A stretch of 64,000 nt of DNA from an uncultured Candidatus Saccharibacteria bacterium (GCA_964548205.1 CAZJPJ010000001.1:60086-124085); one strand, 5' to 3'. Shown: positions 6,780-64,000, numbered from the stretch's first letter. Notes: generated by a model from the letters alone, not told the origin. Made by a program: numbers and translations.

Positions 6780-7612
6780 TAGTTTTGGATTAGGTTTATC
6801 TCGTTTATAACCCTCTTTATTTTGGCATCGTTGAGACCGGATTGTAGCAATATATCTTGGTTATCAAGGGCTTGGGTGCAGAGTACGACCCCGCTTTCCA
6901 TAAGCAGTTTCTTCTCTCTACCGGTGAGGCTTTGCAAACTTGTGATTGGATGCAAACCCATATCCTCTATCAGGTCCTGAAGGTTGCCTTCGCTTGGATA
7001 GTTCCAACCTATAAGTTTCATATTTCTGCACTTTGCGTACTGTATAGCTTGGGAAGAAAACTTGGTATTTGTCACGAGCCAACCCTCGTCTAGTTTTCTT
7101 GGTGAGCCAAAGTTGAACTGCTCTTTGGACAGATCGTCCCACCTAGCTTTGACGTATAGGGCCGCTTTCAAATCAGATTTTATACCGAACTGATTGTGGA
7201 ACTTGGCTTCGACCATCACGAGCTTGTTTTCATTCCATGCTACTACATCGATCTCATGGTCTACACACTGACCTTTGGCAATAAAGTCAGTCCTTACTTC
7301 AAAACCTTTTGCTCTAAAGATCTCTGAAACAAGTTGCTCGAAAGGAAAGCCAGTCGGGCCCATCTCCATAACTGCATTGCGAAGAGAATATCGTATAGCG
7401 GCTGGTTTGTGTTCTTTCTTTAGAAGTTCGAAAGCATGTTTGTAGATCTCCTTGGTGGTCATGCCCTCGCGGAGCTCGAGTTCGATGTGGGACATTATCT
7501 TTTCTATCGTGTTGTCGTTGTGTTCGACTCTACGCAAAGAGTTACGCAACTTGCTAGGTTCAAAAGGCTCTCTCTCGCCAGTGGCTTTGGTGATGAGTAT
7601 TTTGTCGTACAT
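6779..7612 (-). CDS. ATP-cone domain fused to an Mrr-like (PD-(D/E)xK) restriction endonuclease domain
   Basis: N-terminus KILITKATGEREPFEPSKLRNSLRR has an ATP-cone signature. The middle FEQLVSEIFRAKGFEV...DHEIDVVAWNENKLVMVEAK has an Mrr_cat-like nuclease core. Confidence 0.65.
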   Translation of the reverse strand: MYDKILITKATGEREPFEPSKLRNSLRRVEHNDNTIEKIMSHIELELREGMTTKEIYKHAFELLKKEHKPAAIRYSLRNAVMEMGPTGFPFEQLVSEIFRAKGFEVRTDFIAKGQCVDHEIDVVAWNENKLVMVEAKFHNQFGIKSDLKAALYVKARWDDLSKEQFNFGSPRKLDEGWLVTNTKFSSQAIQYAKCRNMKLIGWNYPSEGNLQDLIEDMGLHPITSLQSLTGREKKLLMESGVVLCTQALDNQDILLQSGLNDAKIKRVINEINLIQN

Positions 7613-7619
7613 GAGAGCA

Positions 7620-8777
7620 TTATAGCACCTTCTCTACCACTCCTCCTCCGAGGCATCTTTCGCCAGAATAAAATACCACTGATTGACCGCTTGCGAGGTC
7701 GCTCGCCTCGCTCTCGAACACGACGGTATCACCCGACAAGGTGCAAGGTATTTTATTCTGGCGATACCTGTATCTACATTCTATCTTTTTGTTCTCAATA
7801 TCTTTATCAAGCAGATTTATTTTTTCTAGTCTCGCAGAGTAATTTCCCAAAAAAAGTCCTCGGTTCTCCTCACTTGCTTCATGCGAGCTCGGAGTGACTT
7901 TCTTTTGAAAATTACTCTGCTCGCTGACTGTGATAGTATTTTTTTTGATATCTTTGTCTACTACATACATTGGAGTGCTCTGAGTATTTTTGTTTTCAAT
8001 CCGAAATCCGTGTCTTTCTCCTAGCGTGTAAAGTATTGCTCCATCGTGATCACCTATCACTTCCCCATCAGTGTTCAAAACTTGTCCTTTCTTGGGATTC
8101 AAATAATCCTTCAAAAATTCTTTCATATCGATCTGGCCTAGGAAACATAGGCCCTGACTATCTTTGCGAGTAGCTTGGGGTAAGCCAAACTTTGCTGCTA
8201 GTTTGCGCACTTCTTCTTTTTGTAAATGACCGATAGGAAAAAGAATATGGGAGAGTTGGTTTTGTGTGAGTGTCCAGAGGAAGTATGATTGGTCTTTGTT
8301 CTTATCTTTACTTTCCCATAATTCATAATTCATACTTCGTGATTCTGCACGAAGTGCATAGTGCCCCGTAGCTACGAAGTCAGCGCCATTCTCTAGTGCC
8401 CACTTCAAAAAGTGGCCGAACTTGATAGCCTTGTTGCACATGACGTCCGGATTTGGTGTCCGACCCGCTTTGTATTCGTCGAGCATGTAGTCGACCACTT
8501 CTTGTTTGTATTCCTTCTCTAGATCGAGTGACTTAAATGGTATGTCTAAGGTTGCCGCGGCGCGCATAGCGCTACGCCTGTCTTCTCTCCACGTGCATGT
8601 GTACCCAGGAGGATTCCACGCCTTTATAAAAACTCCTGTCACGTCAAAGCCCTCTTTCTTCAAAAGTGCCGCGCTGACTGCGCTATCTACTCCGCCCGAG
8701 AGTCCGACGAAAACCTTTTTAGCTTTTAGCTTCTGGCTTTTAGCTTCTAGGGTATTGATTACGGGTTGACTTTTCAT
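7620..8777 (-). CDS. mnmA: tRNA-specific 2-thiouridylase MnmA
   Basis: PP-loop SGGVDSAVSA plus the conserved C...C catalytic region and C-terminal barrel. Full length at 385 aa. Confidence 0.9.
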   Translation of the reverse strand: MKSQPVINTLEAKSQKLKAKKVFVGLSGGVDSAVSAALLKKEGFDVTGVFIKAWNPPGYTCTWREDRRSAMRAAATLDIPFKSLDLEKEYKQEVVDYMLDEYKAGRTPNPDVMCNKAIKFGHFLKWALENGADFVATGHYALRAESRSMNYELWESKDKNKDQSYFLWTLTQNQLSHILFPIGHLQKEEVRKLAAKFGLPQATRKDSQGLCFLGQIDMKEFLKDYLNPKKGQVLNTDGEVIGDHDGAILYTLGERHGFRIENKNTQSTPMYVVDKDIKKNTITVSEQSNFQKKVTPSSHEASEENRGLFLGNYSARLEKINLLDKDIENKKIECRYRYRQNKIPCTLSGDTVVFESEASDLASGQSVVFYSGERCLGGGVVEKVL

Positions 8778-8860
8778 ATATAAGTATTATAATACACTAG
8801 GAAGCCCAAGAGGGCAAATCGATCGATTCTAAATTGAAAGCGGAGAAGGAGAAGGAAATA

Positions 8861-9226
8861 ATGGAAGTCTCAACAAGGGTTGTTTTTGTTGCAAATCATG
8901 ATGCGAATCTTGCTGCCATATCTGTGGCCAGTGAGGTCGCAAAAGTGATCGCGAAGGCCCACCTAGAAATCGGGGTAGCCCTTGGTGGTGTGGTCGTGAT
9001 TAGAACTCATGACAATTTTACTTTTGCCTTTGAGAACATGTTGGCGCGGAGTGTAAGGGTGATCGTTAATGTAGAGCTATCCCCAGGATGCTCTACCGAA
9101 ACGGTTACGATCTGGGGGTACTATTCGGAAAGGGGCGTTTCTCTGGTCTACGAGGGTGGAGACGTTGTTTGTGGTTCTGGCCCATTCACCAACGCTGTTT
9201 TCAATCTTTTCAACATCCCAGCCTAA
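8861..9226 (+). CDS. hypothetical protein in GC-rich segment B; possibly GlcG/DUF336-like
   Basis: The ORF track gives 8834..9226; the ATG at 8861 follows GGAGAAGGAGAAGG. GVALGGVVVIRTHDNFTFAFENM and GGDVVCGSGP loosely resemble DUF336 (HbpS/GlcG) motifs. This is a weak call. Confidence 0.35.
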   Translation: MEVSTRVVFVANHDANLAAISVASEVAKVIAKAHLEIGVALGGVVVIRTHDNFTFAFENMLARSVRVIVNVELSPGCSTETVTIWGYYSERGVSLVYEGGDVVCGSGPFTNAVFNLFNIPA

Positions 9227-9240
9227 CCACGACCGACACC

Positions 9241-9275
9241 AAGCGGGCCCTCCTCCGTCGGGCCCGCTTTTTGAT
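9241..9275 (+). terminator. hairpin AAGCGGGCCC, 9-nt loop, GGGCCCGCTT, then TTTT
   Basis: 10-bp stem followed by TTTTGATATT. Confidence 0.65.
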
Positions 9276-9289
9276 ATTCACATTTTATC

Positions 9290-9387
9290 TTGACTTTTTT
9301 TTCCACCAAGTTATATTAGAGGAGAACGGTACTTTTAACACTCCTCCTAGGGGGCCACGATTCGCATCCGTGGCCCTCCATTTTTTT
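9290..9387 (+). ncRNA. candidate small RNA: promoter TTGACT, 16-nt spacer, TATATT, then about 65 nt with two hairpins and a T7 run
   Basis: After the -10 element come GAGGAG...CTCCTC (6-bp stem), then GGGGCCACG, loop attcgcatc, CGTGGCCC, then TCCATTTTTTT. There is no credible ORF. It converges on the mltG 3' end. Confidence 0.3.
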
Positions 9388-10516
9388 ATCTCAAATAATT
9401 CTCCCTATTGCTCTGATGACCGTCGAAGTTTTTGGCATAGTATGTATTGCCATATTTGTCTGACATAAAAAATAAGTATTCAGAGTTGGTCGGAGCGATA
9501 GCTGCTCGAAGAGAGTCGATCCCAGGGTTTGTGATGGCGGTGGGCGGTAGCCCTTTGTTTACATAAGTGTTGTAAGGGTGGTCTTCTCCCAAATCTTCTT
9601 TAGTCAAAGTATAAGAGTGTTTGCCGTTGTAGTAGCGGAAAGGGGCATCTACTTGTAGAGGCATATCTATCTTCATACGCTTCCATAGTATTCCAGATAT
9701 CAGTCTCTTCGATTCCAGAGTATTACCTTCTCCTTCTATTATTGAAGCCATGATGACGAGCTCTTCGAGTGGTCGCCCTGATTTCAAAATATCTTCTTCA
9801 TATGTCTTTATCTGCCGCGCAAAGTTTTCTCTCATAGCCAGTATCACATCGTCTGGTTTTGTATTCGGCATGAAGAAGTATGTATCAGGAAAAAGATATC
9901 CTTCATGGTTTCCATTTTCTACATCCCGAATAAATTCATTTGCATCAAAGGCTGGCAATGTTTCTTGAAGTAGTTTGGCAATGTCGATAGAAGAAGAACC
10001 TTCAAATATAGTCACTCTTATGGGTATGAGCCCGAATTCTCCCTTGTGTAGTGTTCTCACTACTTTGAATATCGAAACTTTGTTTGGGAAAAAATAATCC
10101 CCCGCTATCACCCTCCTCTCTCCTCCGGTTAAAAGTATGAAGAATTTTAACCAAAAACTTGATCTGACGATTTTTTGGTTTTGAAAATGATCTGCAATCT
10201 GCGACAATGTTTCACCTCGGTCTACCTCTACAAGTGCTTGGTCTGGAAAGTCTCTTGGGGCACTCCAAGAAAAGATATAGAAGCTTATGAAAAAGGATAA
10301 AATTAGTACAAAGCTCCCTATTATCCTCAGAAAGTATCTGCTTAGTAGTGGGCTGTAGCGCATTATTGATACGCGCCAGATAATGATGCGAGGGTGTATA
10401 ACTAACGCATCTCTCAGATAAGATATTTCAAATCTAATAAATTTCAAAAATTCTACTGATCTATAAAATATAAATCTGAGAAAAGTAATAATTTTTGCTA
10501 AAAAATTTCTAAGCAT
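9386..10516 (-). CDS. mltG: endolytic murein transglycosylase MltG (YceG family)
   Basis: N-terminal TM segment; YLFPDTYFF, LVIMASIIEGE and LQVDAPFRY are YceG signatures. An alternative start Met at 10363 (MRYSPLLS) would give about 325 aa. Confidence 0.8.
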   Translation of the reverse strand: MLRNFLAKIITFLRFIFYRSVEFLKFIRFEISYLRDALVIHPRIIIWRVSIMRYSPLLSRYFLRIIGSFVLILSFFISFYIFSWSAPRDFPDQALVEVDRGETLSQIADHFQNQKIVRSSFWLKFFILLTGGERRVIAGDYFFPNKVSIFKVVRTLHKGEFGLIPIRVTIFEGSSSIDIAKLLQETLPAFDANEFIRDVENGNHEGYLFPDTYFFMPNTKPDDVILAMRENFARQIKTYEEDILKSGRPLEELVIMASIIEGEGNTLESKRLISGILWKRMKIDMPLQVDAPFRYYNGKHSYTLTKEDLGEDHPYNTYVNKGLPPTAITNPGIDSLRAAIAPTNSEYLFFMSDKYGNTYYAKNFDGHQSNRENYLR

Positions 10517-54554: not shown

Positions 54555-55391
54555 CTAATCATCTTTGCTTTTTTCGCTAGATTCACTCTTAGATTTTTCA
54601 GATTTTTTGTAAGCCTTCTCTTTATTTTCTTTCAATGTTCGGATGCGCTTGTCTATGTCTTCTCTAGCCTTCTCGATTCTTTCTTTTACCTCCTTCTCTA
54701 TCTCACTCCTTCTCTTTTCATTTTCTTCTGCTATCTTCTTCTGCTCTTTAGCAATTTCTTCATTTTGTTTTTCTATTTTACTCCAGACTTCGGTATTTAT
54801 TTTTTCTGCCTGCATATCTGTGCTAGTAGCGTTACTGCCATGTGATTTGTTTCCTATATCTGATTTTTTCCTAGTCTTGGTTTCGAAAGCGTCCTCTTCG
54901 CTTACACTTTTCTTTGCTTCTTTTTCTATTTCTTTCTCTGCATTTCTTACAAATCTTTCTGTGTGCTTTGTAAACAATATTTCTACTTTTTGTTTTTTAT
55001 CTTCATCAAATTTTTCTTTCGATATAAGGGCTTCCACCTCTTCGATACGTCGATTGGCTTTTTGTGCTTCCCACTCTACTTTTTGTTCGGGCAATATCTG
55101 GACAATATCCCTAATAGGTTCTGTTATGTCTACCTTCAGAGGGTAAAGTAGGTCTCCAGGCAAAGAACTTTCTGCTGCATAAGACACTCCTCCAGTGGCG
55201 AGGACCAAAAGGGCTACTAAAGTGACAAAAGCATGCGTTCTTACAGCTACAAATGATCTTGTGAATATATTTGAAGGTATGCTTGCATATGGCGATCTGG
55301 TCAAAATACGCTGTAGCAAAAAACTCTTCTCTTCTCTGCTGAGATTTATTTTCTTCAGATCTTCTATTCCTTTTTGCCACTTCTCATTCAC
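54555..55391 (-). CDS. putative anti-sigma factor (cytoplasmic N-terminal domain, one TM, Lys/Glu-rich C-terminus)
   Basis: Overlaps the ECF sigma gene stop by 4 nt. Has a TM helix FVTLVALLVLATGGVSYAA. Confidence 0.5.
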   Translation of the reverse strand: MNEKWQKGIEDLKKINLSREEKSFLLQRILTRSPYASIPSNIFTRSFVAVRTHAFVTLVALLVLATGGVSYAAESSLPGDLLYPLKVDITEPIRDIVQILPEQKVEWEAQKANRRIEEVEALISKEKFDEDKKQKVEILFTKHTERFVRNAEKEIEKEAKKSVSEEDAFETKTRKKSDIGNKSHGSNATSTDMQAEKINTEVWSKIEKQNEEIAKEQKKIAEENEKRRSEIEKEVKERIEKAREDIDKRIRTLKENKEKAYKKSEKSKSESSEKSKDD

Positions 55392-55927
55392 TTTGTATCG
55401 ACTTCTTTTCTTTCTATTATTATCTCTCTCAATTTTTGTAAAGCGTGGTTGATCCTTAGGGAGGCTGCGTTTGCTGATATCTCAAGTATCTCTGAGATTT
55501 CCTTTGGCGACAGATCATCCATATATCTCATCCTTATTATATCTCTATATTGCTTAGGTAGTTCTTCGATCTTTTCTAAAACATATGAAGCTTCTACCGA
55601 TATCTCTAGTTTGTGGTGCGCATCAGGGTCGGCAATATCTGTGCTGTACTCATCTTCCTCGTTGTAAGTCATTTCCTCAAGAGAGACCGCCTTCCTTTTT
55701 TTATAGGTGTCTATTACCCTATTTCTTGCTACTCTGAGCAACCATGCACGAGGGTTTTCTATGGCCTCACCTTCTACTATTTTTTGCCACAATTTGTAAA
55801 ATGATTCCTCTACTATATCTAGAACTTCCTCTCTATCAGAGAGTCTAAACATAATGTACCTGAAGACCCTATCAGATTCTTGATGATATATTTTTTCGAA
55901 AATATTTCTTTTTTCATCTTGGTCCAT
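55388..55927 (-). CDS. ECF-type RNA polymerase sigma factor (sigma-70 regions 2 and 4)
   Basis: Region 2 FRYIMFRLSDREEVLDIVEESFYKLW and region 4 LPKQYRDIIRMRYMDDLSPKEISEILEISANAASLRINHALQKLR. Confidence 0.85.
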   Translation of the reverse strand: MDQDEKRNIFEKIYHQESDRVFRYIMFRLSDREEVLDIVEESFYKLWQKIVEGEAIENPRAWLLRVARNRVIDTYKKRKAVSLEEMTYNEEDEYSTDIADPDAHHKLEISVEASYVLEKIEELPKQYRDIIRMRYMDDLSPKEISEILEISANAASLRINHALQKLREIIIERKEVDTK

Positions 55928-56939: not shown

Positions 56940-57824
56940 TTATTTCAACTTGTCGATCTCAATCTTTTTCATCTCAAGCATTGCTTTCATCGCGCTTTCT
57001 CTTTTTTCTTTGTCTTCTGAGTTTAGTATCTCTTCCATCCCCTTTGGTACGATTTGCCAAGAGACTCCATGCTTATCTTTGAGCCAGCCACATTGTTCTG
57101 CCTCTGGTACTGCAGAAAGGGCCTCCCAATATTTGTCTATCTCATTCTGGTCTTCGCACTCTACTATCAAAGAAAAGGCCTCATTGAAAGTAAACTTGTG
57201 CGGGCCGCTGCTGTCCATGGCCATAAAGCTGTTGCCGCAAAGGGTAAATCTAGCGTGTTTCAAGTTGTCTTCGCTATCATCATCGTCTGGGTCATAGGGT
57301 AACAACAGATCGATTTTTGAGTTATCAAATATTTTTGTATATGTCTCTATGGCTTCTCTTGCCTTACCTGTTACATCCTGAGTAAACATAAACAAAGGCG
57401 TTATTTTTTGCCCTTCCTTCACTGGCAGACCCCAAGATAATTGCCAAGAAAGACCATATTTGTCATTTAGCCAGCCGTACTTTAAAGCCCATGGATAATC
57501 TCTAAATTCCATCAACACTTCACCTCCTTCTACCAACTTGTTCCATGCATTAGTTATCTCTTCTTCGTTTTCAAATTGTACAAACAAAGATATCGAAGGG
57601 TTTATCTTGAACACTGGGCCGCCGTTTAGTGCGAGCATCCTTAGACCTTCGAGCTCAAACGACACTGTCATAGTACTGCCCGGGGTTTGTCCGTGTATTT
57701 CATTTCCAGCTTCTGGGTATTTTGTTGTACTGAGTATTTTGCTGTTTTTGAATACAGAAGAGTAAAACTTTGCAGCATCTTCTGCTTCTCTGTCGAACCA
57801 AATATTCGGTATGATTTTTTGCAT
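56940..57824 (-). CDS. VOC/glyoxalase-fold protein (PhnB-like), tandem duplicated domain
   Basis: Two repeats of the IWFD...A..FY...F...Y.WA/Y.W. pattern (MQKIIPNIWFDREAEDAAKFYSSVF, then ...GWLKDKHGVSWQIVP). The ORF track start is 57848. Confidence 0.6.
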   Translation of the reverse strand: MQKIIPNIWFDREAEDAAKFYSSVFKNSKILSTTKYPEAGNEIHGQTPGSTMTVSFELEGLRMLALNGGPVFKINPSISLFVQFENEEEITNAWNKLVEGGEVLMEFRDYPWALKYGWLNDKYGLSWQLSWGLPVKEGQKITPLFMFTQDVTGKAREAIETYTKIFDNSKIDLLLPYDPDDDDSEDNLKHARFTLCGNSFMAMDSSGPHKFTFNEAFSLIVECEDQNEIDKYWEALSAVPEAEQCGWLKDKHGVSWQIVPKGMEEILNSEDKEKRESAMKAMLEMKKIEIDKLK

Positions 57825-57825
57825 C

Positions 57826-58566
57826 TTATTGTTTTTTAAATCCTTCAAATGCCTTCAATATCTCAAGTGGGATTGTAAATATTACTGTATTAGACTGATC
57901 TGAAGAAAGATCGTTTATGGATTGTAGAGTGCGCAAATGTAGTGCTCCCTCGGTGGTAGTAAGGATCCTGGCAGCTTCTGCCATGTTTTGCGCAGCAGCA
58001 AGTTCTCCTTCAGAGTTTATGATCACAGCCCTCTTTTCTCTTTCTGCTTCTGCTTGCTTTGCTATAGTACGCTCCATGTCTGACGGCAGGCTTATGTCTT
58101 TGAGCTCTACGTTGCTCACCTTTAGGCCCCAAGCGTCTGTCTCTTTGTCTACTATCTGCAATATACGATCAGCCAGCTTTTCTCTGTTGGCCAGAAGTTC
58201 GTCGAGTGTCACTTCGCCGACTATGTTGCGCATAGTTGTTTGAGCGTATTGCGATATGGCGTATTTGAAATCTTCTACTTCTAGTATGGCTTTTTCTGCG
58301 GACTCTACTTTGTAATATATAACTGCGTTTACTTTGACCGACACGTTGTCTCTTGTTATTCCTTTCTGGTCGGGCACATCTACTGCCTTTACACGCATGT
58401 CTACTTTGCTTGCACTCTGAAATATCGGCAACACCAAGCGCCACCCGGGGTCCATAATTCCCGAAAATCTACCCATAGTAAATCTTACCCCCCTTTCATA
58501 TTCGTTGACCTGCCTCAGGCTGGAGAGGAAGATCATGAGTAGCACAAAAAACAATAGGTAAGACAT
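57826..58566 (-). CDS. SPFH/band-7 protein (stomatin/prohibitin-like, QmcA-type)
   Basis: N-terminal TM; SPFH core YERGVRFTMGRF...AVIYYKVESAEKAI...AEREKRAVIINSEGE. Confidence 0.8.
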   Translation of the reverse strand: MSYLLFFVLLMIFLSSLRQVNEYERGVRFTMGRFSGIMDPGWRLVLPIFQSASKVDMRVKAVDVPDQKGITRDNVSVKVNAVIYYKVESAEKAILEVEDFKYAISQYAQTTMRNIVGEVTLDELLANREKLADRILQIVDKETDAWGLKVSNVELKDISLPSDMERTIAKQAEAEREKRAVIINSEGELAAAQNMAEAARILTTTEGALHLRTLQSINDLSSDQSNTVIFTIPLEILKAFEGFKKQ

Positions 58567-58654: not shown

Positions 58655-58942
58655 TCAGATAAGATCGTGCGTGAACGGCAACGCAATGAATACCGATCCG
58701 CACTTACACCGAAAATCGGTTACCGCCTTCGCCACGTCTCGAGTTTCTTTGTTACAATCAGGGCAACGGATATCGCCCCATATGTTGAACGCGTAGAGCT
58801 TTCTCGTCTCTGTTGGCTTGACTGGCTCCGGCTTCTGAAACATCCCCGCTAGTGAAGCGGGAACGACCGATGAACCAGTTGGTGCTACTGCTAGGTAGCA
58901 CATCATGACTCCTGGTCTACTTTCCACTCTAATTATTGGCAT
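58655..58942 (-). CDS. small zinc-ribbon protein (CPDC...CKC), moderately GC-rich
   Basis: CPDCNKETRDVAKAVTDFRCKCGS; the start is uncertain. Confidence 0.35.
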   Translation of the reverse strand: MPIIRVESRPGVMMCYLAVAPTGSSVVPASLAGMFQKPEPVKPTETRKLYAFNIWGDIRCPDCNKETRDVAKAVTDFRCKCGSVFIALPFTHDLI

Positions 58943-59133
58943 TCATGCCTCCTTTTGGTTTCTAATCCAACCCCTAAGATATAACTATCACCCAAAAAGT
59001 CAACGAAAACTGCCCGCGAAAGCGAGGAGCTTTCGCGGGTAGTTTTCGATTGTTTGTTTCTTAAATAATATCACTTAGCTCATTATTTTATTGTTTCTTG
59101 TCAGACTTTACTTTTCTCCCGCTTTAGTTTATT

Positions 59134-59150
59134 ATGCAAGTTACTTGCAT
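59134..59150. promoter_or_regulatory. 17-bp perfect palindrome ATGCAAGT-T-ACTTGCAT at the fur start
   Basis: Read directly. A Fur-box-like AT-rich segment (AATAATATCAC...TCATTATTTTATTG) lies about 70 nt upstream. Confidence 0.35.
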
Positions 59151-59481
59151 TATGAGAACAAACGTATACAAAGAACATATACTGAAACTGCTCAAGAAAA
59201 AGCATCTTTTAACCATTGCCAAAATCCACAAGGCCATACCCGATGCCGACTATTCGACCGTTTTTCGTAATGTCGAACAACTTCTTAAGGACAAGGAGAT
59301 TAAGAAAGTGATGATAGACAACAAATCTATTGCCTACGAGGCCTCAAAAGACAGCCACGATCACTTCATCTGTAATGACTGCGGTACGGTTGAATCTATT
59401 CATATTCCTCATAAATCCATCAAAGGTAGAAAGGTTGATGATATTACGGTACGAGGTTCATGTAATAAATGTGCTGATTAA
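59134..59481 (+). CDS. fur: Fur-family metalloregulator
   Basis: The HTH region and HDHFICNDCGTVESIH...CNKCAD (HHDH/CxxC metal sites) are typical of Fur. The Met at 59152 is an alternative start. Confidence 0.75.
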   Translation: MQVTCIMRTNVYKEHILKLLKKKHLLTIAKIHKAIPDADYSTVFRNVEQLLKDKEIKKVMIDNKSIAYEASKDSHDHFICNDCGTVESIHIPHKSIKGRKVDDITVRGSCNKCAD

Positions 59482-59484
59482 TAT

Positions 59485-60435
59485 ATGAGAATTGCCTTTG
59501 TTGGAAAAGGCGGATCAGGTAAAAGCACCCTTTCAGCCTCATTCGCCTCATATGTAGCACAACAAATAACTAAACCAGTTGTTGTTTTCGATGCGGATCT
59601 CAATATTCACACACCGGAGCTACTCGGTTTTGAACCTATTCCCTTTGAAAAACATCTCTCAAGCCCTCAGACAACAAAGACCATTCAGAAGTGGCTCATT
59701 GGTGAAAATGATATACAAAATCTCGGCGCTTTTCGTAAATCTACACCACCAACCAGAAAATCTAATATCATAAAGATTGAATCAATCAAAGATACTCCTG
59801 TCGGATCATTTGGATTACACAGATACAATCTCTCCGTCTTCGCCGTCGGGACCTATCAAGAAGAAGATATCGGTGCAAGTTGTTACCACAACAACCTTGC
59901 AATCTTTGAAAGCATTTTGAACCATACCGACGACAAAAAAGGATATCTCATTGCCGACATGGTGGCGGGTGTGGACTCATTTGCCGGAACACTTCATGCA
60001 CAATTCGATCTGACGTATCTCATCGTCGAGCCAACAATGCGAAGTATTGATGTATACACCAAGTATATCGAGCTTGCTACTGAGGCTGGTGTTGCTGATG
60101 GTGTAAGAGTTATCGGCAATAAAGTGCGAAATCAGAAAGATATCGATTTCGTCAAGAAACACATCCCATCTGGAAAAATAATCGGATTTTTTACAGATGA
60201 CGAGCATATTCGAGATATTGATCAGAACGGCGCAACACTCTCTGTCTCAAAAATTCATCCTGATAATCAAGAACTTTTGAAAATAATACTAGAGTTTACT
60301 AACACACTACCTGACACTCGTAATGTACGACTCAAGAAAATTTGGGAATTACATAAAAAATATGTTAACAGACCCCTTATAACAGAAAGATTTGGGGACC
60401 TGACCGGTCAAATCGACGAAGAATTTAGATTTTAA
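59485..60435 (+). CDS. MinD/ParA/CooC-superfamily P-loop ATPase (deviant Walker A KGGSGKST)
   Basis: IAFVGKGGSGKSTLSASFASYVA...VVFDADLN...; 4-nt gap from fur and 3-nt gap to the next gene. Confidence 0.6.
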   Translation: MRIAFVGKGGSGKSTLSASFASYVAQQITKPVVVFDADLNIHTPELLGFEPIPFEKHLSSPQTTKTIQKWLIGENDIQNLGAFRKSTPPTRKSNIIKIESIKDTPVGSFGLHRYNLSVFAVGTYQEEDIGASCYHNNLAIFESILNHTDDKKGYLIADMVAGVDSFAGTLHAQFDLTYLIVEPTMRSIDVYTKYIELATEAGVADGVRVIGNKVRNQKDIDFVKKHIPSGKIIGFFTDDEHIRDIDQNGATLSVSKIHPDNQELLKIILEFTNTLPDTRNVRLKKIWELHKKYVNRPLITERFGDLTGQIDEEFRF

Positions 60436-60437
60436 CT

Positions 60438-61919
60438 ATGAAAACTGTTTATAATAAAAAAGTATTTGCTGGCGAAAATTCAATGCTTGATTTTGTAAAT
60501 CCAGCAAATTCCATAACTCCCTTAGTCGAGATACATAAGAACATAAACCCATTTTATACAGATGGGGTCAGATTTTACGCAAAGCTGTTGCAGTTTTCCC
60601 CGCTTGCTCAAGTCAAATCAATACCTGCCTACGAGATGCTCATCCAAGCAAATGCACGCAATGAGATCAATGGAAAAGATACCATTATCGAAGCATCATC
60701 TGGGAACACTTCTTACGGCCTTTCCGTGATAAGCAGACTTCTTTCAATAAATAACATAGAAGCCTATGTATCTCACGAAATAAGTGACAAGAAAATTAGC
60801 CTGCTCCGTCTTTTTGGAATCAAAGCAAAAGTATTTGAAGATCCTCTTTGTGCGGACGCTACTGATCCAGAAAGTAGAATATATAAAGCAAGAGACGCCG
60901 GAAAAATAAAAAATATCTATAACCCAGGACAATATTCAAACATAGACAATCCTTCCTCACATTACAAATATACCGCAAAACAAATATGGGAGCAGACGAA
61001 TGGCGAAATTGCTATATTCTGTTGCGGATTAGGAACTAGTGGCACCTTCTCAGGATGTAGCATGTTCTTGAAAGAAAAAAATGAAAAAATACACTGCATT
61101 GCTGGTTTACGAAGTGAAAATAATATGGTCCCCGGGCTTAGAACCGAAAATCAAATGAGAGAAATAGACTTTCCATGGAAGGAATACTTGGACGCATCAA
61201 TAAAAATCAGTTCGATAGATTCATATGCTAACAGTCTTGATCTGATACGCTACGGAATTATTGCTGGACCTAGTTCAGGCTTGGCATTTGCTACCGCAAA
61301 AGAATATATAGGGATCCTAAAAAAAGATAATAAATTGGAAAAACTAAAAAATCAGGAAGGCTATATAAATGTCATCTTTATATGTTGTGATTTTCCCTAT
61401 TTATATTTGAATGAATACTTCCAATACCTCGATCCATCGAGTTTCCCCAATATAGAGAATGAGCAGTTGCTTAGAGAAAGAGGAGAACACAATACTCCTC
61501 AAACGATTCCAACAGTAAAAGAATTATCTTCTCATGAAGTGTTTGATCTTGCATTCAATGAAAGTCCTGAGAAGGTTTGGGGACAAATAAAGCACAAGGA
61601 GAAAATTGAGCTAAAGAAAGATGTTTCGATAATCGATGTTCGTAATGAGAGCGAATATGAAGATCGCCATGTTCCTGAATCAGTACATGTTCCATTTCAT
61701 GATCTGGATACATTCCTACAGAAAAATAAAAAGGAGCTCAGTAAAAATAATGCTGTGATATTCGTATGTAGGCGTGGAAACACCAGCCGTTTGGCGGCGC
61801 ACAAAGCCGAACAACTAGGTATCAAGTCTATCAGCCTCAAGGGCGGTGATGCCGAGTGGAGTAGACTCAATCTTCCACGTATTCGTCCAGAGAAATGTAT
61901 TTTAAGGTTTGATCTATAA
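60438..61919 (+). CDS. PLP-dependent cysteine-synthase-family (Trp-synthase-beta fold) enzyme fused to a C-terminal rhodanese domain
   Basis: N-terminal ITPLVEI...QVKSIPAYEM (PLP Lys), EASSGNTSYGLS and GLGTSGTFSGCSMFLKE (Gly-rich phosphate loop). C-terminal IIDVRNESEYEDRHVPESVHVP...VIFVCRRGNTSRLAA has the rhodanese active-site Cys. Confidence 0.7.
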   Translation: MKTVYNKKVFAGENSMLDFVNPANSITPLVEIHKNINPFYTDGVRFYAKLLQFSPLAQVKSIPAYEMLIQANARNEINGKDTIIEASSGNTSYGLSVISRLLSINNIEAYVSHEISDKKISLLRLFGIKAKVFEDPLCADATDPESRIYKARDAGKIKNIYNPGQYSNIDNPSSHYKYTAKQIWEQTNGEIAIFCCGLGTSGTFSGCSMFLKEKNEKIHCIAGLRSENNMVPGLRTENQMREIDFPWKEYLDASIKISSIDSYANSLDLIRYGIIAGPSSGLAFATAKEYIGILKKDNKLEKLKNQEGYINVIFICCDFPYLYLNEYFQYLDPSSFPNIENEQLLRERGEHNTPQTIPTVKELSSHEVFDLAFNESPEKVWGQIKHKEKIELKKDVSIIDVRNESEYEDRHVPESVHVPFHDLDTFLQKNKKELSKNNAVIFVCRRGNTSRLAAHKAEQLGIKSISLKGGDAEWSRLNLPRIRPEKCILRFDL

Positions 61920-62167
61920 AAAAACCATTTAGGACTCGAACCATAGAAATGGCTTAAATTAAGAATATTTTGATATCGACAAAAATAGCAAAAGTTCGAG
62001 TCCATGACTCGTTTTTAAAATATGTTGCAAAATATAGCTATTTTACCCCTCTCGGTAGGGGTCACATGACTGCTGGCCGTCTGGGACGGTATTAGAACAA
62101 GTATAATCCTAAAGACATGAAAATAGAACCGCCGGACTCGAAAGCCCGGCGGGTGTTGGTCCTGCTG

Positions 62168-62579: not shown

Positions 62580-62867
62580 TCACCCGTTTGTCCACCAAGA
62601 ACCAATACTAGAAATCATGAGTTTTCCGAAACCTAAAATTATTAAGAGTACTCCAAAACCTCTTAAATCCCCTCCAAGCATCATCACCCCAATTATTATA
62701 AAGGCAACACCCCAAAGACTCTTCTTTTTCCATTTTTTGCTAGTCCTTTCAACTTCTACCACCTCCACTTTTTGAGAATTTGTATTTATAGGGTTGCCAC
62801 AATGAGGACAGGATTCAGCCTTGTCTGATATTTCTTTTTGGCACTCACTACACTTTACTAGAGCCAT
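62580..62867 (-). CDS. zinc-ribbon (CSEC...CPHC) plus TM small protein
   Basis: MALVKCSECQKEISDKAESCPHCGNPI followed by a hydrophobic helix. Confidence 0.4.
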   Translation of the reverse strand: MALVKCSECQKEISDKAESCPHCGNPINTNSQKVEVVEVERTSKKWKKKSLWGVAFIIIGVMMLGGDLRGFGVLLIILGFGKLMISSIGSWWTNG

Positions 62868-63387: not shown

Positions 63388-63660
63388 ATGGGGTCAGGAA
63401 ATGGGGTCACAGGAAATGGGGTCAGCCACCTTTTTTCGTGGAAATGGGGTCAGCCACCTTTTTTCGGGGAAATGGAAATGGGGTCAGCCACCTTTTTTCG
63501 GCCTCCCCACATTATGGAGTACTTGTTCAATATCAAATTTCCTAACTATTCTATCAATCCATGTGGAAATGGGGTCAGCCACCTTTTTTCGGCCTCCCCA
63601 CATTATGGAGTACTTGTTCAATATCAAATTTCCTAACTATTCTATCAATCCATGCATCCT
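63388..63660. repeat. nested tandem duplication: about 95-bp unit x2 plus 5 partial copies (13-27 bp) of its GAAATGGGGTCAGCCACCTTTTTTCG end
   Basis: The units duplicate the last roughly 25 codons and stop of the minus-strand transposase-like gene. There are no unique spacers. Confidence 0.8.
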
Positions 63661-64000
63661 TTCCAAAAGGTATGCTCTTTTCTTCAGATTGTTCCAGTCT
63701 TTCCAACTCTTTTATGGTGATAGGATCATTAACCATTCTTAGATAATTCTTTGGCATGTCAGTTGGCCAAACTGAAAGAAACACCTTCTGCTTTTCTGTA
63801 CCGAATTCCCTCCTCCAAAGGCTCGACCACTTCCAGTTTTCTGCTTTCTTAACCAAATTCGCTGTCTTAGCATTCCTCTCTACATACCGGAGTACTGTAA
63901 GGAGGTGTTGGTCTTGTTCGCAGATGAATGATTTGTATCGACCTTGATACAGGTGCCCTTGCCCGACTGTAGCTTTAGCAACATGCCACCGACGGGTATG
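63575..64000 (-). mobile_element. tnpA: HuH Y1 tyrosine transposase (IS200/IS605-RAYT type), C-terminal part; the N-terminus lies beyond the window end
   Basis: Minus-strand frame open from 64000 reads ...GHLYQGRYKSFICEQDQHLLTVLRYVERNAKTANLVKKAENWKWSSLWRR..., matching the Y1-transposase C-terminal signature W/Y-Q-x-R-Y/F...YI-x-x-N-P/A-V-x-A-x-L-V...(D/N)-W-x-W-S-S. It ends ...GRPKKGG at 63575. Confidence 0.55.

Follow-up and report, generated by a model that had tools for sequence, protein, structure and literature searches.

A conserved operon for a Fur-family regulator, a CooC-lineage ATPase and a PLP-rhodanese protein in Candidatus Saccharibacteria and other CPR bacteria: a possible metal-starvation chelator system

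In Amycolatopsis japonicum, the pathway to the zincophore [S,S]-ethylenediaminedisuccinate (EDDS) begins with an SbnA/CysK-like, pyridoxal phosphate (PLP)-dependent enzyme, and its genes are controlled by Zur and turned on at zinc starvation. Among the NTPases that act as chaperones for individual enzymes, CooC serves carbon monoxide dehydrogenase (CODH) and MeaB serves its mutase, with IcmF being a naturally occurring protein in which the G-protein chaperone MeaB is fused to the mutase that it serves; maturation NTPases are typically more strongly conserved than their partners. The fungal aspergillomarasmine A (AMA) synthase of Aspergillus oryzae (PDB 8H4H and 8H4Q), which consists of a fold-type-II PLP domain and a rhodanese-like domain, acts alone, and we know of no partner ATPase or Fur-type regulator for it. 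This enzyme is reported to condense O-phosphoserine with L-Asp to yield toxin A and, with a second O-phosphoserine, AMA (Guo et al. 2020, ACS Catal). AMA is a Zn2+ metallophore with a narrow Zn/Ni/Co specificity (PMC8829947, PMC11091072). Fda4 of Fusarium poae, a protein with the same combination of PLP and rhodanese-like domains, condenses O-phosphoserine with L-Ala in vitro, also with formation of a C–N bond (PMC12751119). In the literature covered here, the reaction of O-phosphoserine with an amino-acid amine to give an N-(2-amino-2-carboxyethyl)-amino acid is documented for AMA synthase, Fda4 and Tln5 only. Here we describe an operon at positions 59134-61919 of a 64,000-nt stretch of DNA from an uncultured Candidatus Saccharibacteria bacterium (GCA_964548205.1 CAZJPJ010000001.1:60086-124085; hereinafter, the window) that encodes a Fur-family regulator, an ATPase of the CooC lineage and a PLP-rhodanese homologue of AMA synthase. 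We tentatively interpret it, at somewhat less than even probability, as a self-contained, autoregulated metal-starvation operon of bacteria of the Candidate Phyla Radiation (CPR, or Patescibacteria) that makes an amino-acid-derived chelator and possesses a dedicated Cys/His metallochaperone.

The superfamily of each part is known, as is the logic of placing a chelator synthase and a metallochaperone NTPase together with a repressor of the Fur type. In the open-access literature, we found no description of a Cys-x-His ATPase of the CooC lineage paired with or fused to an AMA synthase homologue, of a prokaryotic PLP-rhodanese system of the AMA synthase type, or of the operator of this module in CPR bacteria, in agreement with the statement in a preliminary description of the locus that this is not a described pathway. 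The three genes are co-directional and tightly spaced, starting from fur, as also noted there, with 3 nt and then 2 nt between stop and start codons (the gaps of 4 and 3 reported initially are coordinate differences). The principal features are as follows.

59134-59150, no strand: operator, a perfect 17-bp palindrome ATGCAAGTTACTTGCAT, with the consensus aTGCAA-N5-TTGCAt shared upstream across loci
59134-59481, plus strand: Fur-family regulator ORF as it opens, 115 aa
59152-59481, plus strand: Fur-family metalloregulator, 109 aa from the probable start at ATG 59152, in agreement with an independent gene call
59485-60435, plus strand: ORF of the CooC-lineage ATPase, 316 aa, with the invariant or nearly invariant motifs GKGGSGKST (7-15), DADxNxH (36-42), S-C133-Y-H135, H147, DMVAG (158-162), H171, NK (212-213) and H290
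60438-61919, plus strand: PLP-rhodanese ORF, 493 aa
60504-61328 (aa 23-297), plus strand: fold-type-II PLP domain (Pfam PALP), with K60, S87-S-G-N-T91, G197-L-G-T-S-G-T, R235, G277-P-S-S-G281 and C138
61602-61865 (aa 389-476), plus strand: rhodanese domain (Pfam Rhodanese), with the loop cysteine C444 in CRRGNTS

To assess the conservation of this arrangement, we gathered loci around PLP-rhodanese homologues from metagenome contigs and species-representative genomes and searched them with the three proteins of the window and with profiles. The protein database contains about 60 full-length homologues with both the PALP and the Rhodanese domains (36-60% identity), the named ones being from Candidatus Paceibacterota or Saccharibacteria; an exhaustive profile search indicated a modest family, with a few dozen full-length members after clustering at 50% identity; 663 proteins reach E <= 1e-30 when PLP-only forms are counted. 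The resulting 37 distinct CPR-type loci, 36 of which include enough upstream sequence to be judged, carry labels that include Saccharibacteria, Dojkabacteria, Peribacteria, Berkelbacteria, Parcubacteria, Paceibacteria, 'Gammaproteobacteria'-labelled metagenome-assembled genomes (MAGs) and one DPANN archaeon, Iainarchaeum; nearly all related sequences come from MAGs, and some of the taxonomic assignments are open to doubt.

The ATPase gene is present in 35 of the 36 evaluable loci and lies directly upstream of the PLP-rhodanese gene, often overlapping it, with three exceptions: a methyltransferase-like gene is inserted between the two in one locus (L021), a methyltransferase-like domain on the N-terminus of the enzyme separates them in another (L095/L096), and in the third (L001), the ATPase is fused to the enzyme. 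This fusion protein (P0044, 829 aa, found on one contig only) joins a complete ATPase (residues 1-318) to a complete PLP-rhodanese protein end to end, through a 16-residue linker, for which IcmF provides a precedent of an NTPase metallochaperone fused to the enzyme that it serves, albeit with an NTPase of another family (G3E), another cofactor (B12) and another client. The sole evaluable locus without the ATPase (L027) encodes the regulator (507-926) directly before the PLP-rhodanese protein (980-2485), with a perfect operator box in front of each gene (133-147 and 970-984). A Fur-family gene adjoins the module in approximately 27 of the 37 loci, upstream on the same strand, divergently or, once, downstream. 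The other flanking genes differ among the loci. Because the ATPase is retained in so many CPR lineages and in a DPANN archaeon amid unrelated flanks, its linkage with the PLP-rhodanese gene is far beyond chance. The initial view of the three genes as one functional cluster is supported. The two linked proteins differ in their conservation: on shared contigs, the ATPases show 70-78% identity to the protein from the window compared to 49-53% for the PLP-rhodanese proteins.

Two further observations were made on these loci. In L003, L004 and L014, the module directly follows genes for FtsK/SpoIIIE-like, relaxase-like (Replic_Relax) and single-stranded DNA-binding (SSB) proteins (about 300-4600 in L003) and is located beside an MmeI-type restriction-modification gene; these FtsK-, relaxase- and SSB-like neighbours suggest that integrative or conjugative elements can carry the module. 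In L039 and L040 (about 7270-9440), the ATPase and PLP-rhodanese genes are clearly present but split into many short ORFs under the standard code; the respective organism probably uses an alternative genetic code, for example, with UGA as a sense codon, as in Gracilibacteria or Absconditabacteria.

The product of the third gene combines a CysK-fold PLP enzyme with a rhodanese domain that has an active-site-type cysteine, as originally described: the PALP (E 1.8e-34) and Rhodanese (E 4e-16) domains are both recognized in Pfam. All NCBIfam equivalog models score far below their cut-offs (cysKM, 127.7 bits vs 344; CysM, 120-123 vs 394-413; cysK, 105.6 vs 351; SbnA, 111.4 vs 350), with additional sub-threshold matches to cystathionine beta-synthase (CBS) and rhodanese models. 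The preliminary description held that a common CysK-rhodanese housekeeping enzyme with unrelated neighbours would disprove it; what we observed are conserved neighbours and scores of 105-128 bits for cysK, cysM and SbnA against cut-offs of 344-394, and a housekeeping CysK was rejected on both the model scores and the genomic context. In a phmmer search of PDB, the best matches were 8h4q and 8h4h (E 1.5e-66), with the alignment spanning residues 9-482 of the 493, followed by CBS and CysM (1e-29 to 1e-26) that align with the PLP domain only. The structural model (predicted local distance difference test, pLDDT, 89.2) retrieves the same AMA synthase structures in Foldseek (8h4h, apo, and 8h4q, with O-phosphoserine; E 2e-41, 30% identity), with a domain orientation that differs from that in the crystal structure (template modelling (TM) score 0.65). 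Judging from these comparisons, the PLP-rhodanese protein is a full-length homologue of AMA synthase, its closest characterised relative.

The residues expected of such an enzyme are invariant in the CPR family: the PLP lysine K60, the SSGNT substrate loop (S87-T91), the GLGTSGT (G197-T203) and GPSSG (G277-G281) motifs, R235, and the interdomain linker CCDxPYxYxxEYF. AMA synthase shares the PLP lysine, the substrate loop, the linker (in the form FICCDxPYxYxxEYF) and the arginine, which aligns with CysM R210; this type of arginine binds anions such as the phosphate of O-phosphoserine, or thiosulfate, as in CysM of Mycobacterium tuberculosis. Three cysteines provide the main argument for sulfur chemistry or a metal site. 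All 35 family members compared have the rhodanese loop C444, which is found in AMA synthase as well; C138 occurs in PLP-rhodanese proteins of CPR bacteria and Nocardia, together with the rhodanese domain, and is replaced by Gln in AMA synthase and in PLP-only relatives; and C487, in the C-terminal tail LPRxRxxxC, is nearly invariant and absent from both AMA synthase and PLP-only relatives. Fda4, compared here by its description, differs in feeding L-2,3-diaminopropionate (L-Dap) into a non-ribosomal peptide synthetase (NRPS) pathway with an FAD oxidase; the CPR loci encode neither the oxidase nor an NRPS. Compared to the EDDS/Zur systems, the CPR loci lack SbnB-like and decarboxylase genes but include the gene for the CooC-type ATPase, to which nothing in those systems corresponds.

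In Pfam, the ATPase falls into the broad CbiA/MinD/ParA NTPase family (E 7.5e-8), with a weak N-terminal match to ArsA_ATPase, and the NCBIfam models for MinD, ParA and ArsA all remain below threshold (minD_arch, 38 bits vs a cut-off of 202; ParA_partition, 20 vs 180). The best match in PDB is CooC1 (3kje), with an E-value of 1.7e-14 when the single sequence is the query and 4.7e-21 with the family profile, and the same protein tops the Foldseek search with the AlphaFold model (pLDDT 90.9, predicted TM score 0.90; E 7e-12, target-normalised TM 0.77), ahead of NifH, MinD and the ATPase-type HypB. Hence, of the two alternatives that had been offered for this protein, metal-centre maturation or partition, the first is favoured by both sequence and fold. 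A partition or division role of the ParA/MinD type was rejected: the model scores are far below the cut-offs, and no ParB/parS or MinC/MinE partner is found nearby.

Conservation within the ATPase family was examined in alignments of 28 and 32 members. Like CooC1 of Carboxydothermus hydrogenoformans (3KJE), the family displays the deviant Walker A motif (GKGGxGK[ST]T, invariant), DMxAG, NKV and the position of the metal-site loop. It differs in being longer by some 60 residues, part of which form a conserved helical extension at the C-terminus that contains H290, in having a PLP enzyme as the partner and, most prominently, in the metal-site motif itself: in the HMMER alignment, S-C133-Y-H135 is placed at G-S-Q-C112-Y-C114 of CooC1, so that Cys-x-His, invariant in 28/28 and 32/32 sequences, replaces Cys-x-Cys. 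In CooC1, C112-x-C114 binds Ni or Zn across the dimer interface and, by analogy, a dimer of the window ATPase would offer a Cys2His2 metal site; UreG employs the same solution, with a Cys-Pro-His motif. No gene for CODH/acetyl-CoA synthase (ACS) is present in any of the approximately 40 loci; the protein, although it resembles CooC in fold and probably also in how it works, is therefore not CooC.

The regulator matches the Pfam FUR family (PF01475) with an E-value of 3.6e-12 and 46.9 bits, against a cut-off of 23.1, shows weak, sub-threshold similarity to the PerR, Fur and Zur models of NCBIfam, and its counterparts in at least 10 loci are labelled FUR in precomputed Pfam annotation. Its translation probably begins with ATG 59152 rather than 59134 because the conserved palindrome covers the first ATG. 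In an alignment of 22 module-linked homologues, the invariant positions include T42, Y/F44 and R45 of the recognition helix (T42-V-F-R45 in the window), Y68-E69 and H75-x-H77; the cysteines of the CxxC...CxxC structural zinc site (C80, C83, C110, C113) are conserved, along with both histidines, in 22/22 sequences. Thus, by sequence criteria, the Fur-family assignment is solid.

The perfect TGCAA-N5-TTGCA palindrome occurs once in the window (0.10 occurrences expected). With at most one mismatch, the box precedes the first gene of the module in approximately 28 of the 37 loci, often in two copies in divergent arrangements; it is found also in loci without an adjacent regulator gene (L025, L028, L031, L092) and in front of zigA-like genes (L092, L093). 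The Nur box of Streptomyces, which has been footprinted with DNase, reads tTGCaa-N5-ttGCAA in a 6-5-6 layout, as distinct from the n-1-n layout of the Fur box (PMC2691836). The operator of the module shares both the 6-5-6 layout and the core with this box. Among the loci compared, the conserved operator does not conform to the classical Fur box, which is an AT-rich n-1-n palindrome of the type GATAATGATAATCATTATC; a candidate of this kind, AAATAAT-N12-ATTATTT (~59064-59089), was dropped given that, unlike TGCAA-N5-TTGCA, it is not conserved in other loci. Iron-uptake or iron-sulfur (Fe-S) genes do not adjoin the box in any locus examined, and accessory genes behind the same operator are of the ZigA type. 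Control of the operon by iron, as initially proposed, is unproven. The likeness to Nur of Streptomyces coelicolor otherwise extends to membership in the Fur family: the module regulators are much shorter (102-165 aa) and do not conserve the Nur Ni-site ligands His70 and His72 of the wing, and His126, with an HxH-like H-N-H-A-H found only in the sequences from L020 and L029. In Zur proteins, the position of E69, an invariant residue located a few residues before HxH, is typically occupied by a Cys ligand of the regulatory site and, to our knowledge, Zur boxes differ from the module operator.

Additional genes join the module in some lineages. In L092 and L093, the first gene of the operon after the same box belongs to COG0523; its product matches the NCBIfam ZigA model NF038288 over the full length (586 bits, E 3.5e-176, with the cut-off at 600). 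In L008, a CobW-like gene follows the PLP-rhodanese gene, so that COG0523/ZigA-type or CobW-like genes are associated with 3 of the approximately 37 loci. This configuration resembles Zur regulons with COG0523 (YciC/ZigA), in which a Fur-family repressor is found beside ZigA-type GTPases, with the difference that the module regulators have E69 at the position of the Zur cysteine. Clustering of COG0523 with a zur-type repressor is a signature of zinc-starvation regulons (PMC2770081). Five loci (L022, L023, L035, L038, L091) encompass one or two genes for YibE/F-family membrane proteins in an operon with a divergent regulator. The methyltransferase-like gene of L021 and the homologous domain (E 4e-29) on the N-terminus of the enzyme P0243 (L095/L096), which is encoded behind the Fur and ATPase genes, suggest a small-molecule signature.

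More distant members of the PLP clade were observed outside the CPR-type loci. In Nocardia spp. (L077-L090), an oral Clostridiales MAG (L085) and a Bdellovibrionota MAG (L086), genes for PLP and rhodanese domains at 26-29% identity directly follow a gene for an Orn/DAP-type decarboxylase, with those for a SufS-like class-V aminotransferase and a protein ending in a heavy-metal-associated (HMA) domain nearby; the Clostridiales locus, in addition, encodes a CooC-like ATPase homologue with the same C-Y-H motif. These loci look like an uncharacterised, possibly sulfur-containing, metallophore cluster. PLP-only relatives in Acidobacteriota (L057-L073; 36-38% identity) are encoded beside a group-II PLP decarboxylase (PF00282), several with AsnB-like and flippase-like proteins. 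In marine alpha- and gamma-proteobacterial MAGs (L036, L041-L047, L052, L053, L055), PLP-only relatives of ~350 aa and 40-43% identity (PLP gene at ~8000-9050) belong to ars islands with ArsR, ArsD (PF06953, 1e-41), ArsA (PF02374, 2e-95), an MIP/aquaglyceroporin and a class I/II aminotransferase; we know of no description of an AMA-synthase-like PLP enzyme as a component of such islands. Three PLP-only proteins, P0288 (922 aa), P0295 (894 aa) and P0280 (617 aa), contain N-terminal extensions of 220-570 residues without a Pfam match. Across its range, the PLP clade keeps company with genes for metal and metalloid handling.

If the operon is indeed responsible for chelator synthesis under metal starvation, it could work as follows. 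When metal is plentiful, the metal-loaded dimer of the Fur-family protein would, given the behaviour of this family, bind the 17-bp palindrome over the promoter and start and keep the operon off; under metal scarcity, the operon would be expressed. The PLP enzyme is predicted by homology to form PLP-aminoacrylate from O-phosphoserine, with R235 as the anion-binding arginine, and the aminoacrylate would then react with a nucleophile, an amino-acid amine being the most likely one, to yield a small aminopolycarboxylate chelator of the toxin A/AMA type that may be tailored by the methyltransferase in some lineages. The ATPase would dimerise on ATP, hold one metal ion between two Cys-x-His motifs in a Cys2His2 site and act in physical contact with the synthase, to which it is fused in one lineage; it could either hand metal over between cellular clients on one side and the chelator or the enzyme on the other, or switch the enzyme according to the supply of metal. 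The ZigA genes and the Cys2His2 site make zinc the most likely metal, but the Nur-type box, the CooC ancestry of the ATPase and the specificity of AMA leave room for nickel or cobalt. A metallophore precursor was indeed among the products initially envisaged. The sequences show the parts and their homologies, the conserved linkage, the operator and the accessory genes, from which the metal, the product, the direction in which metal would move and the part played by the invariant rhodanese cysteine are inferred.

Several observations weigh against this interpretation. The module has no consistent neighbour that could export, import or serve as a receptor for a chelator; only YibE/F proteins are encoded nearby, in about five loci. 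The metal that is sensed is not fixed because the Zur-typical cysteine and the Nur Ni-site histidines are both absent. A pure C–N synthase does not obviously need the invariant C444 and C138, the latter being Gln in AMA synthase, to which the identity is only 30%. In the marine proteobacterial islands that combine a PLP-only relative with ArsR, ArsD, ArsA and an aquaporin, a thiol product fits better than an aminocarboxylate. Finally, given that AMA synthase works alone, the need of a chelator synthase for an ATPase is unexplained.

C444 and C138 are central to the model of the preliminary description, that is, a synthase of cysteine or a thio-amino acid that depends on persulfide. In this model, C444 would receive sulfane sulfur, either from thiosulfate or through a cysteine desulfurase, and attack PLP-aminoacrylate, possibly via C138; the product would be cysteine, cysteine persulfide or a thiol-bearing ligand, and the ATPase and the regulator would tie the reaction to metal-sulfur or iron homeostasis. 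Such chemistry is consistent with the invariant rhodanese cysteine in a six-residue loop of the sulfurtransferase type that contains basic residues, with the co-occurrence of C138 and the rhodanese domain, with the equivalence of R235 to the CysM arginine that accommodates thiosulfate, and with the SufS-like desulfurase in the distant PLP-rhodanese clusters; the ars-island PLP-only relatives would plausibly make thiols, and the cysKM and CysM models rank first in NCBIfam, though far under their cut-offs. We nevertheless consider it somewhat unlikely. C–N bond formation between O-phosphoserine and an amino acid is the reaction of both characterised enzymes of the same architecture, AMA synthase and Fda4, and AMA synthase retains the rhodanese cysteine without a known sulfur role; persulfide delivery for the synthesis of cysteine or a thio-amino acid is unsupported. 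Furthermore, a sulfur-donor gene is not linked to the module in any CPR locus, there is no classical Fur box, the accessory genes encode zinc chaperones rather than iron or Fe-S proteins, and the strictly linked ATPase is left without a task.

Alternatively, the two proteins may be a chaperone-client pair, in which the PLP-rhodanese protein is a metalloenzyme with a candidate site formed by C138, C444 and C487, the metal is installed by the CooC-type ATPase, and beta-substitution is metal-assisted. The strict pairing, the overlap of the genes and the natural fusion point in this direction, as do the far better conservation of the ATPase, the three invariant or nearly invariant cysteines of the enzyme and the retention of the CooC-type metal site in the form of Cys-x-His. 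However, neither AMA synthase nor any other fold-type-II PLP enzyme of the clade is known to have a metal site, AMA synthase and the PLP-only relatives lack C138 and C487, and in L027, the enzyme is encoded behind its own box without any ATPase. We consider this possibility distinctly unlikely.

The ars islands of the closest PLP-only relatives (40-43% identity), with ArsR, ArsD, ArsA and an aquaglyceroporin, bring up a role in metal or metalloid detoxification, whereby the PLP enzyme would make a ligand that sequesters the toxic element and the ATPase would handle the latter; ArsA belongs to the same ATPase class, and the ATPase of the window shows the weak N-terminal ArsA_ATPase match mentioned above. 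We regard an arsenic-type role as very improbable because the Fur-type regulatory logic and the CooC-type motifs speak against it: holo-repressors of the Fur family generally silence genes under metal abundance, contrary to what resistance would require, and the ATPase displays DMxAG and Cys-x-His that are characteristic of CooC rather than ArsA. Moreover, the accessory genes encode zinc-starvation chaperones. Chance adjacency of a housekeeping CysK-rhodanese, a ParA/MinD ATPase and an unrelated fur gene, for which the broad Pfam assignment of the ATPase and its weak MinD matches could be adduced, has next to no probability and was rejected by the context census, given the linkage in 35 of 36 loci despite unrelated flanks, the gene overlaps and fusions, the operator common to the loci, and the MinD, ParA and cysK/cysM scores far below cut-offs.

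The interpretation of the operon as a chelator system can be extended to a bolder proposal, which is possible but which we hold to be doubtful: a minimal, sometimes mobile, two-protein machine for metal scavenging, in which a one-enzyme synthase of an AMA-type (or thiol-modified) metallophore is physically coupled to a new Cys2His2 metallochaperone ATPase of the CooC family that loads or strips the metal, under the control of a Fur-family sensor and a Nur-type operator, in CPR bacteria and at least one DPANN archaeon. If true, this would be the first AMA-like metallophore pathway in prokaryotes and the first ATPase of the CooC lineage with a client other than CODH/ACS, extending the CooC family past CO dehydrogenase and the AMA synthase family past fungi, and would provide ultra-small episymbionts with a way to compete with their hosts for zinc or nickel. 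The CPR bacteria have tiny genomes with very little biosynthesis, and their acquisition of trace metals is essentially unknown; the operon would offer a concrete, testable handle on this problem. AMA, which inhibits metallo-beta-lactamases and nickel uptake, is also of medical interest, so that bacterial relatives of its one-step synthase could be employed in biocatalysis or yield new aminopolycarboxylate chelators. The presence of the PLP clade in proteobacterial arsenic islands and in actinobacterial clusters with HMA proteins hints at a wider, undescribed tie between PLP enzymes of this beta-substituting kind and metal or metalloid handling.

The boundaries of the operon and its immediate upstream neighbours in the window are as follows.

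59004-59048, no strand: bidirectional terminator-like hairpin with a 20-bp stem (terminator scan and sequence) that closes the upstream minus-strand genes and forms the 5' boundary of the operon
59107-59135, plus strand: promoter-like site TTTACT-17-TATTAT (consensus scan; 9/12 matches, weak alone), with the -10 element abutting or overlapping the operator
61997-62011, no strand: terminator-like hairpin followed by a T-run (terminator scan), 78 nt past the stop codon, the 3' boundary of the operon
56940-57848 and 57826-58566, minus strand: upstream neighbours, a tandem PhnB/3-demethylubiquinone-9 3-methyltransferase-like glyoxalase-fold protein and an SPFH/Band-7 protein

Hairpins are located at both ends and, therefore, the three genes, preceded by a leader of 85 nt, comprise one transcription unit. 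Farther upstream, an ECF-type (extracytoplasmic function) sigma factor (55388-55927) and a DUF5667 protein are encoded; by the conservation of the context, these genes and those for the glyoxalase-fold and SPFH/Band-7 proteins are unrelated to the module. The operon is flanked by two small ORFs for Cys-rich zinc-ribbon proteins, both on the minus strand (58655-58942 and 62580-62867), one of which contains a CxxC...CxxC pattern and shows a weak HypA-like match whereas the other combines an N-terminal zinc ribbon with a hydrophobic C-terminal half; their adjacency to the module is not maintained in other loci. We detected no Rfam families in the 56-64 kb region and no tRNA in the window. Near the end of the window, four copies of a 30-nt unit, GGAAATGGGGTCAGCCACCTTTTTTCG, are present at 63410-63654, together with a perfect 91-nt tandem duplication (63473-63563 and 63564-63654); these repeats overlap the 3' end of a minus-strand ORF (63575-63856), the product of which resembles the C-terminal part of an IS200/RAYT-type transposase.

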